IMG/VR virus record: IMGVR_UViG_3300037722_001025
Location: 29,022-93,021 of that record
Direction: 5' to 3' (one strand)
DNA: 64,000 nt
Source of the DNA: a virus
Below the pieces are notes generated by a model. It was given only the letters and a program-made list of their open reading frames with translations, searched no databases and was not told the origin of the DNA. Positions 3,020 to 33,786 of this stretch are shown here, in pieces. Position 1 is the first letter of the stretch. Each line of letters begins with the position of its first letter. The translations under genes and the position numbers were made by a program.

Positions 3020-3682
3020 TTACTCGGCAGGCGCCGGATCAGCAGGGGCCGGGGCAGCAGGGGTTTCTTTCGTTCCGACGATACGCTCGACCTCGACAGC
3101 CGCTTCACCTTCGCCGACTTTCTCCTTCGTACGGGTGATCTTGACGCCTCTGTTGGCCTCGATAAATTTCACATGATTCGAAGCCCTGGACTGGGATACA
3201 CCAGCTTTTTCGACCATCTCAGCGATGGTGGTACCAGCGGCAACCAGTTCGTCCATCGTATTGGACAGGGAGCCTTTGACGGAGCCGAAGATGCCTTTTT
3301 CAATCGAAGAAGGCTTGCGCTCTTTGGGAGCTTTCGGGGGTTTCGGCTCTTTGACCGGCTTCGGTTCTTTGCCAGGTTTGGCTGCCTTCGGGGGTTTCGG
3401 CTCTTTGGCCGGTTTGGCTCCAGGAGAAACATCAGCTTTCACTTCGGGTTCCGGAGCAGGTGCTTCGTCGCCGAAAAGAAAATTGTACTGCTCAATCAGA
3501 TTGGTAGTCAGTTTTCCAGCAGCTTCTTCGCTGAGGGCATCGACAGCACTACCGAAAGACTGGGCAAGAACTTCCTTGCTGACGCCGATGACTTTCAGTT
3601 TTTCTTCAATAAGAGCTAGTTCGTTGAATTCCTTGACAGTTTCTTTTAGTTTGACGAAATCGATTTTGTCGGGGGCTACCAT
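3020..3682 (-). CDS. DNA-binding protein with histone-H1-like PAKEPK repeats and a C-terminal winged-HTH-like domain
   Basis: KEPKPPKA repeats; TIAEMVEKAGVSQSRASNHVKFI helix-turn-helix pattern; next to HU. Confidence 0.6.
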   Translation of the reverse strand: MVAPDKIDFVKLKETVKEFNELALIEEKLKVIGVSKEVLAQSFGSAVDALSEEAAGKLTTNLIEQYNFLFGDEAPAPEPEVKADVSPGAKPAKEPKPPKAAKPGKEPKPVKEPKPPKAPKERKPSSIEKGIFGSVKGSLSNTMDELVAAGTTIAEMVEKAGVSQSRASNHVKFIEANRGVKITRTKEKVGEGEAAVEVERIVGTKETPAAPAPADPAPAE

Positions 3683-3740
3683 AAAGCACTTCCTTTCTTA
3701 GATAGTTGTTGGGGTTAATAGAATACCGACAGAAAAATGA

Positions 3741-4016
3741 TTAATCCTGAACGTATTCTTTCAATTCTTTGGACGCCTTGAAATACGGTGCATTTTTGGC
3801 AGGAATCGTGAGAGCCTCTCCGGTCTGCGGATTTCGACCAGCTCGTTCTTCCCGCTTCTTGATACCGAAGCGACCGAAGCCGGCGACGTTTACATCTTCT
3901 TCTTGGTACATGCGCTCTTTGAGGACTTCAAAAACGGTGTTCACTACCGGGGTGACATCGACTTGAGTCCTGCTGGTAAGCTCAGCCACCTTTGCAATCA
4001 GTTCCGCTTTGTTCAT
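3741..4016 (-). CDS. hup: HU family nucleoid-associated protein
   Basis: MNKAELI, GFGRF, R.GRNPQTGE..IPA..P.FKASKELK. Confidence 0.95.
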   Translation of the reverse strand: MNKAELIAKVAELTSRTQVDVTPVVNTVFEVLKERMYQEEDVNVAGFGRFGIKKREERAGRNPQTGEALTIPAKNAPYFKASKELKEYVQD

Positions 4017-19049: not shown

Positions 19050-19802
19050 TCAGATAAGTTCGAAGTGGATTTTACCGTCAGCTTCAATCTTCTTGCACTT
19101 GTCGGCGCGATTTTTGATCAACCAGGCAATGTGGCTTTTGACACGACTGACGGTAGTTTCGGTGTCTTCAGCGTGCTTTGTGAGGGTCTTGTGAGATTCC
19201 AGAGACACATCGATTTTGCCGTTCTGCATCGTGAGGTAAGATTGGGAGAATTTGCTGACGGGGCCAGTTTTCGGACGAGCCGCTCGGGCAGTACCGCCGG
19301 AAGCAGAACTGGACTTCTTGCCCTGGGGGGCCTGGGCTTTCCGATGCTCGGTCAAAGTTTTGCAGGCTTCAGCACAGTCCTTGAACTGCTTGACGCAATC
19401 CTGGCAGTAGTCGGAATTCAGATCGAACGAGCCGAAGATTGCCGGGTCACATGCGTCGGGGTGTGATTCAGCGAGAACCTTGACGGCTTCAGCGACCGCT
19501 TTTTCTTTTTCAGCATCAGCGGCGCCGACTTTTCCAGCTTCTTCTGCCACGATCTGAGCATCTTTGGCGAGAGCGGCCGCCTCTTCTGCGAGAGCAGTGG
19601 CATCTTTGGCGAGAGCAGTACCAGCACCGTTCATTTCAACGACTCGACGTTCTTCGTTTTGCCGACGTTCTTCAGCGGCGTCCTGTTTCAATTCCTCCTG
19701 GTATTTCTCTTCGTCACTTTTCAGAGCGACGGGATTGGGGGTTTGGGACTTCTGATCTTTCTCAGCGGAACGACGTTGGGAAGCTGAAGTTCTTTTTGCC
19801 AT
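19050..19802 (-). CDS. Early protein: coiled coil, Cys cluster and C-terminal winged-HTH-like domain (paralogue of 28573-29067)
   Basis: Ala/Glu/Lys-rich coiled coil, C..FG...CQDC...C...C, then SKF...QNGKID..LE...TETTVSRVKSH. Confidence 0.7.
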   Translation of the reverse strand: MAKRTSASQRRSAEKDQKSQTPNPVALKSDEEKYQEELKQDAAEERRQNEERRVVEMNGAGTALAKDATALAEEAAALAKDAQIVAEEAGKVGAADAEKEKAVAEAVKVLAESHPDACDPAIFGSFDLNSDYCQDCVKQFKDCAEACKTLTEHRKAQAPQGKKSSSASGGTARAARPKTGPVSKFSQSYLTMQNGKIDVSLESHKTLTKHAEDTETTVSRVKSHIAWLIKNRADKCKKIEADGKIHFELI

Positions 19803-27642: not shown

Positions 27643-28036
27643 TGTTCAAGTAACAGACATAAGACAGACCCATCAAGGCAACAACTTCATTGTACTGTTT
27701 GACAGTACGTGGGTTAACTTTACCATGTTTGCAACGCAACAGAGCTTTCGAGTAATTGGGACATGCGGAGCAGTTCATGAGGGATTCTCCTTGCTGTTGA
27801 TAACTTCATGATAAATTTGAGCAGCCACAGCGTAAGAACAATTGCCTAGGCGCATGATGAATTGAATCTTTAGATTTCTTAGATCTATGGCTTCAACAAA
27901 TCTTTTGTCTTCATCTGTCATTTGTCAACTCCTTGTCAGTGTTCACGGTGAAAACTTCTTTTACAGTATCAGTATAGCAAAGGTATTTGCTCCTGTCACA
28001 AATAAGTTGATTCCACTGCATTTTTATTCGCCAGCT

Positions 28037-28262
28037 GGCATTCGGAGCCATGCGGTGTAGGTGGGAAGGTTTCACATTCCCACGGGCGGCTCCAGGCATT
28101 CGGAAGGACACGGCCACATTCCCAACCTCACATTCCCACGGACGGCTCCACATTCCCACGGGCACGGCTGGTGGACCCGAGGCTCACATTCCCACGGGCA
28201 TCTCCTCGGGTCCACCGCTCCACACGGCTCCTCCTAGGGTGGCGGCTCCTCGGAGGACATTC
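28037..28262. repeat. GC-rich block of CACATTCCCACGG / CGGCTCC repeats with hairpins
   Basis: CACATTCCCACGG at 28073, 28129, 28149, 28185 (partial at 28115); CGGCTCC x4; 13-bp stem 28170-28182/28204-28216. Confidence 0.85.
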
Positions 28263-28523
28263 AGGCGTTGGCGGTGTAGAGGTACAGTATTCAAAGGAAT
28301 GGCCCCGGAGCAGGCCCGGGGCGAGGGAAAGGGTTCTAGGTGAGGCACTTCAGCAGTGCCAGCAATACGACGAATGCAGATATATGATTAATCATATATC
28401 ACGTCATATCAGTGAAGCAAGAAAAACAAAAAGAGCAGTCTGCAACGAGCACAGAACGAAACAAACAAGCTTGTTTTTGAGAGATTCTTTGCATGTAGTG
28501 ACTTGCATAATTATCATCTTTCT

Positions 28524-28563
28524 ATGCTTGCAAGCTTGATATGTGAATCAAGCTTGCAAGCAT
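28524..28563. repeat. Perfect 17-bp inverted repeat just downstream of the GG/CC-free gene
   Basis: ATGCTTGCAAGCTTGAT-ATGTGA-ATCAAGCTTGCAAGCAT. Confidence 0.85.
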
Positions 28564-28572
28564 CAGATTGTT

Positions 28573-29067
28573 TTATTCAGCGACGACGAACTTGAAACGC
28601 TTGTTATCAGAAGTATCAGTCACACGTTTTGCATGTGTACAGTTTTTCATGATGTAAACGCAGTGTGACTTGATACGTGCTTCTGAACATTCTGTAATTT
28701 TCATCAGCTCTTTCATGCTGTGAAATTCTTCAAGCGCGCGATCAATACGATAATTCTGTCGAGTGCTTTCGAGAAGTCTGCAAAACTTCGAAGTCGTTGA
28801 AGTCGACGCAGATTGATTTCTTTTCACTTGTGCATTGTCAATCATGCGTTGCTCGATAGCTTGCACTTGCTCTTCACGAGTCATGCAAGCAAACTGTTCA
28901 GCGTCGATGTTGAGCAGTTGAGCATGATTTTTTCTGTCGAGTGCTTGAGTATCATAAGCTTGATTCATCTTGAGTGCTTCACTGTGAATCAGATACGAAG
29001 TGATCTTGCAGTGAGCTGAAAGCTTGACAGTCTTCTGAGTGTTGTTCTTTTTAGATTGCTTTTTCAT
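28573..29067 (-). CDS. Gly/Pro/Trp-free early protein with a C-terminal winged-HTH-like domain (164 aa from MKKQSKK)
   Basis: Own promoter at 29128-29157, GAGAGAG-type RBS, clear C-terminal similarity to 19050-19802. Confidence 0.8.
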   Translation of the reverse strand: MKKQSKKNNTQKTVKLSAHCKITSYLIHSEALKMNQAYDTQALDRKNHAQLLNIDAEQFACMTREEQVQAIEQRMIDNAQVKRNQSASTSTTSKFCRLLESTRQNYRIDRALEEFHSMKELMKITECSEARIKSHCVYIMKNCTHAKRVTDTSDNKRFKFVVAE

Positions 29068-29127
29068 TAACAATCTTCTTTCTCTCTCATTAATGAGAGC
29101 TGATTGAAGCATCATTGCTTCATTATC

Positions 29128-29157
29128 AATATAGCATAGTGCAAGCTATGTGCAAGC
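29128..29157 (-). promoter_or_regulatory. Conserved phage sigma70-like promoter (first promoter of the early arm)
   Basis: GCTTGCAC-N16-TATATT with TG extension. Confidence 0.75.
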
Positions 29158-29200
29158 AAACAAATCATTTTTTTCAGAAAAAGAGCAAATCGATTTAAGA

Positions 29201-29306
29201 GCTGTTTTTGTGCGAAATAGAGCTATTTCTAGAAAAGCATAGCAACTCAAGCACATATCACTAATGAGAGCTTAAATTGCTGTTTTTGTGCGAAATAGAG
29301 CTATTT
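29201..29306. repeat. 28-bp perfect direct repeat (29201-29228, 29279-29306) with internal palindrome
   Basis: GCTGTTTTTGTGCGAAATAGAGCTATTT x2; AAATAG-AG-CTATTT palindrome. Confidence 0.9.
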
Positions 29307-29497
29307 TGTGATTTGAGATAGAATCTTTTTTTCACTGCTGAGATCAATCGTAGTTATCATATACAAGCAGATCACGGGATTATATTTGCTTAATAAATAT
29401 AAAAATGTAATGATTTCAAGTACTTAGCCCCCCTCGATCTATCTTCATTAGAAGATTTTTTGATGTGAACGTAGGACCCAACCATAATTTTTTCCAT

Positions 29498-29581
29498 ATT
29501 TACGGAAGTTGGTCACCTTTCCTCTTAAAAGCTCAGTAATTATCATAAATTTACAGAAGTTGGTCACCTTTCCTCTTAAAA
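29498..29581. repeat. 33-bp direct repeat (29498-29530, 29549-29581, 1 mismatch) upstream of terS
   Basis: ATTTAC(G/A)GAAGTTGGTCACCTTTCCTCTTAAAA x2. Confidence 0.9.
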
Positions 29582-29803
29582 TCGCTGATATCTGCCAACT
29601 GTTATCTGGTATCTGAAATCTGCCTCCCTATACAGGTACAAAAATATCGCCGACTCAGATTTCGAATTTATAGCAAAGGTAAGTGTATCGCCTCGAAGCC
29701 CCAACTGTAGGCATTAGCAGAATTCCCAGGTAAAAAGAGCCAAAATAAATATGCTTGACATACATTACAGAACCATAATAGGATGAACCAAAAGGAGGAT
29801 AAA

Positions 29804-30370
29804 ATGGCACTCAAAGAGCCCGAAGAATCTAAAGAGTATCACAAACCAGTAATCGACATTGCTAACAATTCGATGATGAAAGGTGAAGTACGAGAAGGGA
29901 AGCAACTGATAGCTTGGGATTCCATCCAAGATTGTAATACCGAAAGATGCCCCATAGGTAAAACCTGCTTGTATGCGAGGATATCGAAGGAGAAGTGCGC
30001 TTTGCAGGTAGGATACCTGCAAAACCTCACTGATACGATATTCTCTACCTACAGATACCTTGATGAAACCTCGATGTTTAAGATAGGTATGCACCTCATA
30101 CCTTTGTACTCCCAGCTTTGTCGCCAGAAGATAGTTGAAAAATCAGTAGGACGATTAGCATATGAGGACGAGAAGGGACGAACTCATATCCACCCAATAT
30201 ATAAAGAGATACGTGAGACCATGAAGGTCATAACTATCTTGTGGCGGGAAATGGGATTCCCAGTAGCAATGAATCCTGACGTGCCTACAGGTAAAGCAGG
30301 ATTCGGGGATGCCTCACATTATGAGACGATATCTCGGGAAGCTGACAATAAGAGGAACATTGTCCGATAA
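29804..30370 (+). CDS. Probable terminase small subunit
   Basis: First gene of the structural arm; AAGGAGG RBS; HPIYKEIRE...LWREMGF resembles the P27-type TerS C-terminus; positional call. Confidence 0.55.
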   Translation: MALKEPEESKEYHKPVIDIANNSMMKGEVREGKQLIAWDSIQDCNTERCPIGKTCLYARISKEKCALQVGYLQNLTDTIFSTYRYLDETSMFKIGMHLIPLYSQLCRQKIVEKSVGRLAYEDEKGRTHIHPIYKEIRETMKVITILWREMGFPVAMNPDVPTGKAGFGDASHYETISREADNKRNIVR

Positions 30371-31857: not shown

Positions 31858-33786
31858 ATGAAACCAGTCCTGCTACGCAGAAAACCAGCACCTATCACAC
31901 AGGAAGAGGTATATGATCCTTCTCTGTATGATCCTGATAAATTACCCCCATATCAGATATATGAACCTTTGGACTATCGTGATGGTCCTGAGGGCTTTAT
32001 CAAGTGGTGTGAAGATAAGGTCTGTATCCCGATCTATCCTGAAGGAAGTGATATTGCCCAATGGGTCAGTATTAAGGATTTGAGTCCTGACATCCACCCT
32101 AAATCAGGAAAAAGCTACGATCATATCTGGCAGATGCAGAAGGTAGAGATTCGTAAGTGCCTGAGAATGGTCAACGGGCGTTTTATTTATCGTCTGATCA
32201 TACTGAGCTGGATGCGGGGGGAAGGAAAGTCACTCCTAGCTTGCCTTATTCAGTTATGGAAGTTTTTTAACTGGCCAAAGCAACAGATTGTCCTCGGAGC
32301 GAATAGTAAAGACCAGATTCGTTTCGTCCATTATGATATTATGAGGGACATCATCAAAAACAGTCCAACCCTGCTTGCAATATGTGGGGATAGGAACGTT
32401 CAGGAGAAAGAAATACGCTTGCGGGATGCTTCAGGTAACGTTTCGTCAGTTTTGCGTCCCATATCGTCTTTTTCGGGTATTGTGTCGAATATTACAGGAT
32501 ACACGTTTTCTGAGATATTTGACATGAAGAATCCGAAGTTTTTTACACAGTTAGACGGGTCTATAAGGAACATTCCGAACGCTTTAGGGGTTATTGACTC
32601 TACAGTTTCCCCAAAAACCCACGTTTTATATAAAATGTACCAATCTTTTGTAGCTAGGCGCACTAAAACGCTCTTTTTCTCGTACCGATGCTCCAAAGAG
32701 GCTTCAATTGCTGATTATTGGAATCCAAATATGGACCAACAGCAGTTGGACGACTATAAAGAGAAATTCCCTCTAGGGGACTTCGAAAAGTATTTCATGA
32801 ATGTCTGGGGAAGTAATGCCCAGCAAGTTTTTACCGCAGAAATGCTTGAAGGGATGAATTATATAGGAATAAATAATAAAGTCACCCCTTACAGCGATAT
32901 TAGAGAACACATTGCAAAGAAACTCAAGCTCAAACAGTCGGTAGAGGATCTAGTTCAGAGAGGAATACCTTGTGATTTTGAGACAGAACTTAAGGAAGTC
33001 AATTTACTGCAATCCCAATTGGTACCCGTAGAAAACATTTACCGACTGCGAGATAAGCATGGAATATCTTGTTCCGCTACTCTTGCAGACCTAGATAAAT
33101 TGGGGGAAATCTATGACACTAACTGGGCCGTCCTCGCAGGAATCGACCGAGCAGATCCACTCAAAAAAGACCGCACGTCGGCGAGAACTATTGTTACGAT
33201 TACGGCAAAAGGTCTACCTGGAAGTAAATCAAATATCTTGGCTGCTGACGGTGGTAACCCTCAGTATATGTATATACTCCTTAATATCGTTCATGTTTCT
33301 GATAGTTTACTTGAGGGAATTAAAGAGGCGATTCTGGAAGCCCATGAAACGTTCGACGGAGTAGATGCAATATGTGGGGAGCGGTGGGGTATCTGGGACA
33401 TGGCTCCTTGGTGTGATGAGCATGGAATTGTGTTTGAACCTATACACCCTTCTTATGATAAGCAGAAAGCCGCGTTTGCAGAGCTTCATGGGGCGATCAG
33501 TACGGGACGATTCAAGACACCACCCATAGCTGTATGGGGAAGCAAGAATGAAGACATTTTGAAGGAAGAAGCAGAAATCTTCTATCATGATGATGAGAAA
33601 AGATGGTTCGGATCACCCGAAAAGATGGAGAAAAATGGAGTACAGGACGATGTTATGTTTGCTGAAGGATGGGGCATCTATGGAGGCCGACTATTCAAAG
33701 CTGACACTTTTAAAGAACGGAACCACAAGATATTTTTTGGTACTATGGTCAGAAACAAAGCACTCCTCACTTCAAATATGAAATAG
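31858..33786 (+). CDS. terL: Terminase large subunit
   Basis: Walker A MRGEGKS, GANSKDQ, nuclease AGIDRA and QDD; upstream of portal. Confidence 0.85.
   Translation: MKPVLLRRKPAPITQEEVYDPSLYDPDKLPPYQIYEPLDYRDGPEGFIKWCEDKVCIPIYPEGSDIAQWVSIKDLSPDIHPKSGKSYDHIWQMQKVEIRKCLRMVNGRFIYRLIILSWMRGEGKSLLACLIQLWKFFNWPKQQIVLGANSKDQIRFVHYDIMRDIIKNSPTLLAICGDRNVQEKEIRLRDASGNVSSVLRPISSFSGIVSNITGYTFSEIFDMKNPKFFTQLDGSIRNIPNALGVIDSTVSPKTHVLYKMYQSFVARRTKTLFFSYRCSKEASIADYWNPNMDQQQLDDYKEKFPLGDFEKYFMNVWGSNAQQVFTAEMLEGMNYIGINNKVTPYSDIREHIAKKLKLKQSVEDLVQRGIPCDFETELKEVNLLQSQLVPVENIYRLRDKHGISCSATLADLDKLGEIYDTNWAVLAGIDRADPLKKDRTSARTIVTITAKGLPGSKSNILAADGGNPQYMYILLNIVHVSDSLLEGIKEAILEAHETFDGVDAICGERWGIWDMAPWCDEHGIVFEPIHPSYDKQKAAFAELHGAISTGRFKTPPIAVWGSKNEDILKEEAEIFYHDDEKRWFGSPEKMEKNGVQDDVMFAEGWGIYGGRLFKADTFKERNHKIFFGTMVRNKALLTSNMK

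Follow-up and report, generated by a model that had tools for sequence, protein, structure and literature searches.

The locus described here lies in an uncultured IMG/VR virus record of 93,021 bp (IMGVR_UViG_3300037722_001025), of which bases 29022-93021 have been analysed as one stretch of 64,000 nucleotides, referred to as “the window”; coordinates given without the name of another locus are those of the window. At 28573-29067, on the minus strand, the window carries a gene for a protein of 164 amino acids, P0001, which contains no glycine, no proline and no tryptophan, and which consists of an N-terminal helical part followed by a C-terminal winged-helix domain (approximately residues 88-164). 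The gene is located within a run of 1017 bp (28360-29376) where GG and CC are absent from either strand, and which covers the non-coding flanks of the gene as well. The first-pass annotation of this DNA, made from the sequence alone, had proposed that the protein is a recoded paralogue of two ordinary proteins encoded in the same window, reshaped to satisfy a constraint that operates on the DNA, and that it may be a pre-early DNA-binding factor, such as a genome shield, a trigger of second-step injection, an anti-defence factor or a transcription factor.

The length of this run is exceptional: the next-longest GG/CC-free run in the 93-kb genome measures 73 bp, no other dinucleotide has a gap of comparable length anywhere in the genome, and the number of GG/CC per 250 nt matches expectation at all positions outside the zone. 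With the amino-acid sequence and the codon usage of the genome held fixed, 22.5 ± 4.5 GG/CC are expected in the P0001 gene (minimum of 8 in 5000 draws), of which it contains none; the two non-coding flanks, where 14 and 17 are expected, are equally devoid of them. We have compared the window at the DNA level with three related loci, L004, L011 and L012, whose orthologous genes also encode proteins free of Gly, Pro and Trp (referred to as “free” genes and proteins): these genes contain 0 GG/CC, where 17-22 are expected, and the GG/CC-free runs around them, non-coding DNA included, extend over 731 bp in L004, 1056 bp in L011 and 1146 bp in L012. GG/CC alone is missing in the pooled zones; the remaining di-, tri- and tetranucleotides show no avoidance, and GC is enriched 1.8-fold.

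The extent of the zone can be read from counts of GG/CC taken per successive 100 nt in the four loci, starting from a run of G residues (29428-29435 in the window). These counts are 2, nine zeros, and then 5, 27, 26 and 23 in the window; ten zeros, followed by 7, 12, 18 and 19, in L011; eleven zeros, followed by 1, 1, 1, 14 and 14, in L012; and 1, 1 and 3, followed by six zeros and 4, in L004. Measured from the G-run, the zone is about 1.0-1.4 kb long in the four loci (~1.05 kb in the window, with a single exception, a GGG at 29376-29378), and past it the counts rise to 12-27 per 100 nt in the window, L011 and L012, i.e. in the three loci whose contigs continue. The 93-kb genome holds 8799 GG/CC in total and shows no genome-wide under-representation of the kind that depletion of a protospacer-adjacent motif (PAM) would leave.

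Because the non-coding flanks and the synonymous sites obey the ban too, it acts on the DNA and not on the chemistry of the protein, as had been proposed; and since the ban rules out the codons GGN, CCN and TGG, the protein is left without Gly, Pro and Trp. The contrary explanation, i.e. that selection on protein chemistry removed these residues, or that the frame is not a real gene, draws on the amino-acid composition itself and on nothing more; it is opposed by the flanks and the synonymous sites, by the 33 of 60 family representatives that use the three amino acids normally, and, as regards the reality of the gene, by a domain that is found by profile in many independent contigs and is modelled with a predicted local distance difference test (pLDDT) score above 92. 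We consider this explanation already refuted by the flanks, the usage within the family and the counts at each locus, and accord it practically no credence. As the sense strand is without both GG and CC, the symmetry of the ban argues for a factor that reads double-stranded DNA rather than RNA.

In L012, two more small open reading frames (ORFs) without Gly, Pro or Trp, of 53 and 97 amino acids, are located downstream of the winged-helix gene, within the stretch that is low in GG/CC (L012 7864-8381); their sequences are unrelated, the last of them contains two GCC exceptions only, and the 53-amino-acid ORF and the winged-helix gene are each followed by a hairpin terminator, the two being almost identical. 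Since these unrelated ORFs obey the ban, the ban follows the place and not the protein family. Neither a GG/CC-free region nor phage proteins without Gly, Pro and Trp are described in the literature that our searches returned.

The P0001 gene forms a small unit of its own that includes a ribosome-binding tract free of GG and a hairpin. An alternative, longer frame opens at 29115; the ATG at 29067 is preceded by a GG-free purine tract, GAGAGAGAAAGAAG, and has been taken as the start because the same arrangement, a GG-free purine tract followed by ATG, is common to the window, L004, L011 and L012. As their ribosome-binding site, the free genes carry a GG-free, GAAAGAGAG-like purine tract (window 29068-29090; L004 718-734; L011 7870-7888; L012 7335-7352), while other genes of the same phage carry AGGAGG, e.g. 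upstream of 29783. Directly past the stop codon, a hairpin with a perfect 17-bp stem (28524-28563) is itself built without GG or CC, and upstream of the gene, inside the zone, two 35-bp direct repeats (29194-29306) are candidate operator sites. The zone of L011 contains a sigma-70 promoter matching at 11 of 12 positions and a clean intrinsic terminator, and L011 is the only locus of the four where both a consensus promoter and a terminator have been scored.

Two further genes of the window, both on the minus strand and of ordinary composition, belong with the P0001 gene: paralogue 2 (19050-19802), which encodes a protein of 250 amino acids with 11 Gly, 7 Pro and 1 Trp and a C-terminal winged helix, and the more distant paralogue 3 (3020-3682), which encodes a protein of 220 amino acids and is located inside a cluster of 7-deazaguanine genes. 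BLASTP aligns P0001 with paralogue 2 at an E-value of 3e-8 (31% identity over 80 amino acids); the direct comparison with paralogue 3 is not significant. A domain profile has been built from 58 representatives of the family, leaving out both members from this genome, and searched against the complete set of 665 six-frame ORFs (50 amino acids or longer) of the whole genome, where it matches exactly three: P0001 (2e-31), paralogue 2 (9.5e-24) and paralogue 3 (1e-5), with the next best at 0.65. Comparison by hhalign of an alignment of paralogue 3 homologues with the winged-helix family gives a probability of 90% and an E-value of 1.7e-6 over 61 columns.

Modelled with AlphaFold2, P0001 reaches an average pLDDT of 85, with values exceeding 92 over residues 95-164, and the elements of the model (helix 104-111, strand 116-117, helix 118-125, helix 129-142, strand 146-150 and strand 157-162) follow each other in the order helix-strand-helix-helix-strand-strand, which corresponds to the H1-β1-H2-H3-β2-wing-β3 topology of a winged helix; the model of paralogue 3 (pLDDT 82-90) has the same order of elements. 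Foldseek returns MarR, ArsR and Fur domains as the best matches of P0001, with weak E-values and a probability of up to 0.99, and the top 50 VIA matches are all winged-helix domains (Z 5.0-6.2). Judged by the profiles and the predicted models, the three proteins are true paralogues that share a winged-helix fold, so that this part of the first-pass annotation has held, and they are members of an unnamed family of winged-helix proteins that are predicted to bind DNA. The family is called unnamed because no significant sequence family emerges from three resources: no Pfam family reaches threshold for any of the three paralogues (MarR_2 is found at an E-value of 0.27 on paralogue 3), PHROG has no significant match for the family, and a profile search of all Protein Data Bank (PDB) sequences gives nothing below an E-value of 0.04, DpnI included. 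The Protein Atlas offers only weak helix-turn-helix (HTH) leads, with scores of 0.77-0.79. Outside the shared domain, paralogue 2 has a Lys/Glu/Ala-rich N-terminal part, followed by a Cys-rich stretch (C..C..C..C) before the winged helix, and paralogue 3 has a Pro/Lys-rich linker; neither has a match in Pfam.

A profile search of 1.84 billion protein representatives has returned 57 proteins, and the 60 family proteins considered here fall into 25 that are without any Gly, Pro or Trp (86-190 amino acids each), two with only 2-3 such residues, and 33 in which the three amino acids make up 4-16%; the family as a whole is thus not generally devoid of them, and their presence or absence tracks the DNA. 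The orthologues of P0001, at 49-72% identity, are free of Gly and Trp. All four free genes whose DNA has been examined (window, L004, L011 and L012) sit in GG/CC-free zones, the GG/CC-free state of the others among the 25 being deduced from their composition only; the ordinary genes (L005/L006, L007, L008, L009, L014 and the two paralogues of the window) are located in DNA of normal GG/CC density. The recoding and the ban are kept across many diverged phage lineages. As for the number of origins of the free state, the maximum-likelihood tree needs eight changes, and the approximately unbiased test does not reject a single clade (p 0.12).

The alignment of the family shows which residues have been exchanged. 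At the turn of the wing, Gly is present in 42-58% of the ordinary members and is replaced by Asn, Asp or Lys in the free members; at the turn of the HTH, Gly in 42% of the ordinary members corresponds to Asp, Asn or Glu; in the S-P-F column, Pro in 42% corresponds to Lys, Thr or Leu; and in helix 3, Trp in 36% corresponds to Phe or Tyr. In the closest subgroup, named after its QNYRID motif, IDPAQ becomes IDNAQ, IDSAQ or IDQAQ, and NCP becomes NCT or NCS. The true recoding lies at the turns, where Gly and Pro give way to Asn, Asp, Lys, Ser and Thr and the fold is kept, while the aromatic sites hold Phe or Tyr and never Trp. The substitutions that had been read from P0001 and its paralogues, Gly to Tyr or Asn and Trp to Tyr, exist as aligned pairs, but “Gly becomes Tyr” and “Trp becomes Tyr” were stated in the wrong direction: the Tyr in QNYRID and the Tyr or Phe after SH are the norm in the ordinary members too, and Gly and Trp at these two sites are peculiar to the clade of paralogue 2.

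The fold raises the possibility that P0001 is a plain, autoregulated early repressor or activator, acting on the 35-bp repeats or on the block downstream of the gene, and that the ban is a property of the location only. This is consistent with the generic character of the winged helix, whose nearest structures are those of MarR, ArsR and Fur, with the direct repeats upstream of the gene, and with the unrelated small ORFs of L012, by which the ban follows the place. The fold is indeed common to P0001 and these regulators over approximately 60-75 residues (Foldseek probability up to 0.99, VIA Z 5-6), but P0001 differs from them in its N-terminal part and in the invariant motifs of its own family (Q..ID..L ... 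R..SH), and no Pfam regulator family reaches threshold, the curated thresholds of the MarR family (PF01047/PF12802) included. In addition, the motif R-I-K-S-H of the recognition helix is nearly invariant in 60 divergent representatives, nuclease fusions among them, whereas the repeats that flank the genes differ from lineage to lineage, which is unusual for operator-specific regulators. We regard a plain regulator as a real possibility, though an unlikely one.

The zone is bounded on its two sides by different kinds of non-coding DNA. Its outer edge is formed by a conserved element of ~44 bp (29402-29445, minus strand), with the sequence AAGATAG.TCGAGGGGGG.TAAGTACTTGAAATCATTACATTTT, which recurs at approximately 7367-7412 in L011, 6985-7030 in L012 and 256-300 in L004; it holds a run of five to six G residues, at which the zone begins in all four loci, and it is far better conserved than the proteins of the zone (35-66% identical). 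In L012 the element overlaps a match to the sigma-70 promoter at 11 of 12 positions. The element may serve as cos site, as genome terminus and/or as end-proximal promoter. A scan of IMG/VR with the element has found L011 and L012 only, and a scan with the alignment of orthologues has found no match; a 21-nt inverted copy of the element at 28007-28027, 76% complementary, has been set aside as a probable chance occurrence. The inner edge of the zone is formed by a block of repeats and hairpins (28037-28340) with four CACATTCCCACGG-type copies, a perfect 13-bp stem and 23-27 GG/CC per 100 nt, i.e. two to three times the normal density; its repeats and palindromes are lineage-specific, and analogous CCAGGGA...TCCCTGG blocks are located at 8560-8800 in L011 and at 8400-8580 in L012.

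Beyond the outer edge, the genes run in the opposite direction to the zone. Two 33-bp direct repeats (29498-29581), which are candidate terminase-binding sites, separate the boundary element from the first packaging-side gene (29783-30370, plus strand), which encodes a conserved protein of 195 amino acids; the protein has syntenic counterparts at 59-61% identity in L011 and L012, has no Pfam or PHROG match, and can be named a small terminase only as a guess. The gene for the large terminase subunit (TerL) follows at 31858-33786 on the plus strand; its PHROG matches are weak (phrog_9 at 5e-12), and L011 and L012 have a TerL of 74% identity at the syntenic position, in the same divergent order. 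Among 50,697 GenBank phage records, tblastn finds no match for TerL at an E-value of 1e-5 and none for the winged-helix proteins (P0001 and P0030), and megablast of the region against the GenBank phages finds none either; the lineage is without cultured relatives.

The neighbourhood of the terminase genes suggests an explanation by packaging, in which a terminase nuclease, activated by the nearly full head, cuts at runs of G, and the last kilobase before cos is kept GG/CC-free as a safeguard against early cuts. The zone does abut a conserved G6 element beside the terminase genes, and its length is similar in all loci, at ~1% of the genome; however, the few GG/CC of L004 and the window lie closest to the G-run, where the greatest strictness would be expected, the transcription unit is where the ban is kept most strictly, the block directly upstream of the supposed runway is dense in GG/CC, and no known terminase behaves in this manner. 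We find this explanation very unlikely.

With the boundary element taken as cos or the genome end, the zone would instead be packaged last and would enter the cell ahead of the rest. In phage lambda, the last end to be packaged, and the first to be ejected, is the one away from the terminase genes, and it is by this analogy that we place the zone at the leading kilobase. The closest described system is the first-step-transfer region of T5, with its repeat-rich stop signal. Certain restriction sites are known to be missing from the T5 segment. T5/BF23 first-step-transfer DNA (bioRxiv 10.1101/866236; PMC10644984) and the zone would both be short leading segments that carry the first-expressed genes, the leading position here being deduced; the stop signal of T5/BF23 is a non-coding block of repeats, inverted repeats and palindromes, which the dense repeat block at the inner edge resembles; and the pre-early protein A2 of T5 is a small DNA-binding protein, as P0001 is predicted to be. 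The differences are of several kinds: the segment is ~1 kb long here and ~10 kb in T5, no terminal repeat has been found here, unlike in T5, the region of P0001 has no PHROG or Pfam match to the T5 pre-early families A1/A2, and the absolute dinucleotide ban that reshapes a protein has no counterpart in the T5 paper (bioRxiv 10.1101/866236). The layout of the locus is consistent with an end that enters first.

The phage also encodes a gene set for 7-deazaguanine modification, comprising FolE (GTP_cyclohydroI, 6e-41), QueD (PTPS, 1e-32), a QueE-like protein and a second radical-SAM enzyme (Radical_SAM), QueC (1.7e-13), a methyltransferase and DpdA; the set of FolE, QueD, QueE, QueC and DpdA is thus complete, with QueE represented by the QueE-like protein. 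DpdA is recognised by PHROGs (phrog_887 at 4e-47), while the Pfam family PF01702 misses it in this genome. Within this cluster (3020-4016), paralogue 3 and a gene for an HU-like protein (phrog_379, 4.6e-27) are located, in this order, between folE and the gene for the QueE-like protein. By analogy with TF1 of SPO1, a DNA-binding protein adapted to modified DNA, the two proteins may be DNA-binding helpers of the same sort.

A related deazaguanine phage, L014, has a DpdA that is 41% and a FolE that is 64% identical to those of the phage described here, and carries a paralogue of ordinary composition among arrays of CCGACCCATCTCC-type repeats (L014 680-2700). Its contig end (L014 1-117) is GG/CC-free for 117 nt and finishes in a GCAAGCTTG-type hairpin, and no further banned di-, tri- or tetranucleotides have been found in L014. 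Because its end is GG/CC-free, the zone of L014 has probably been cut off by assembly, in which case the ordinary gene is probably an extra paralogue and not the orthologue; the use of L014 as a control, i.e. as a deazaguanine phage with an ordinary homologue, has therefore been dropped.

The modification genes bear on which factor would read GG. The published motifs of phage DpdA proteins are short and contain G, namely GA and GGC for CAjan (PMC7544227) and GA for iggy (PMC10484667), so that a rule based on a G-dinucleotide is plausible here; no published DpdA motif is GG, and no modification-free leader is described in the literature searched. A different reader would be a host defence that acts on unmodified GG/CC, such as a type I-F system with its CC PAM, Cas9 with its NGG PAM, or a restriction enzyme with GG/CC sites; in this version, the defence would find nothing to attack in the first kilobase to enter until it had been disarmed by the product of that kilobase. 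In favour of this, the ban affects both strands alike and concerns GG/CC only, which is what a PAM of two letters, readable on both strands, would produce, the zone is located at the probable leading end, and a mild genome-wide depletion of CC against type I-F has been published (PMC12174588; PMC4246573). The avoidance of motifs in phage genomes, whether of restriction sites or of the CC PAM, likewise removes, at the DNA level and on either strand, a short word that a defence reads; as published it is, however, genome-wide and slight (8.27% vs 8.74% for the depletion), not absolute, whereas the avoidance described here is local and complete and deletes three amino acids from a protein. Moreover, the rest of the genome, at normal GG/CC density, would still be open to attack in full after entry, and the zone is rich in HindIII-type palindromes, so that restriction sites are not generally avoided. 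Evasion of this kind, both in the choice of reader and in the disarming role of the product, seems to us rather improbable.

The ordinary relatives of the domain, which occur in cellular or mobile-element DNA, provide indirect evidence that the domain binds DNA, as a winged helix would through helix 3 and the wing. In P0055, the winged-helix domain is joined to an HNH nuclease of the McrA type (Pfam HNH, 1.6e-10; PADLOC mREase_IV, 5.5e-29), and in P0009 (L008 1318-2292) a NucS-type nuclease of the PD-(D/E)XK class is joined to the winged helix (NucS_C, 2.3e-6; PDC-S11, 3.3e-13); P0008 adjoins, in the region L006 9995-14489, a McrBC-like candidate defence system with PDC-M26A (3e-62), DUF2357/PDDEXK_7 and a WYL regulator; a PIF1 helicase is encoded close by. 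Among modification-dependent enzymes, fusions of a winged-helix reader to a nuclease are known (PMC11037411). The relatives are fused to nucleases like the type IV/DpnI endonucleases of that paper, whereas the phage proteins have no nuclease domain, and the winged helix of DpnI has no sequence match to the P0001 family. A search of contigs for bacterial homologues of the domain has found none.

The reading that we prefer, tentatively and at somewhat less than even confidence, is that a recoded winged-helix gene is located in a GG/CC-free leader, that its product is an immediate-early DNA-binding protein, and that the ban is tied to guanine modification or to the nucleases that read it. The boundary G-run element would mark the packaging site or the genome end, and the host RNA polymerase would express the P0001 gene as soon as the zone has entered; the modification of guanine by the phage, or the host nucleases that read the modification, would act at GG, so that the GG/CC-free leader would bear no mark and would pass unseen until its product exists. 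P0001 would be a nuclease-less relative of the DNA-targeting module found in bacterial fusions with McrA-type and NucS-type nucleases, and may bind the phage DNA, at the repeat block or at modified sites, with shielding, the release of further entry or a transcription switch as possible outcomes. The link to modification is favoured because of the guanine-modifying gene set, the paralogue inside the modification cluster and the domain that is shared with type IV-like nucleases.

Several observations weigh against this reading. The window holds one GGG between the G-run and the gene, and L004 holds a few GG/CC there; the upstream region of the P0001 gene in the window yields no strong consensus promoter when scored; and the uncultured 93,021-bp record shows no end repeats. 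The matches of the fold are generic winged helices (Z 5-6), and most such proteins are plain regulators; the nuclease fusions point to DNA targeting and not to the reading of modification; and the published motifs of phage DpdA proteins are GA and GGC, not GG (PMC7544227, PMC10484667).

A more specific form of the preferred reading, which we put forward as a doubtful speculation, is that the winged-helix family reads modified guanine or the GG step itself: bacteria would arm this reader with nucleases, while the phage would keep copies without a nuclease, one of which, encoded in an unmarked leader and made first, would cover the modified genome as it enters, or unlock it, before host nucleases can read it. 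If this were true, a GG/CC-free kilobase would be a general strategy of base-modifying phages.

The presence of a local, absolute ban on one dinucleotide, which removes three amino acids from a protein, implies that some factor recognises GG/CC in double-stranded DNA at an early stage of infection. A natural control is provided by the paralogues of ordinary composition together with the relatives fused to nucleases, and comparison with them shows how the winged-helix fold survives without Gly, Pro and Trp. The candidates that this raises are the modification of guanine by the phage, type IV-like nucleases that share the domain, and a possible stop signal for entry; the identity of the reader of GG/CC would add a rule to the design of phage genomes, and might reveal a new pair of defence and counter-defence.

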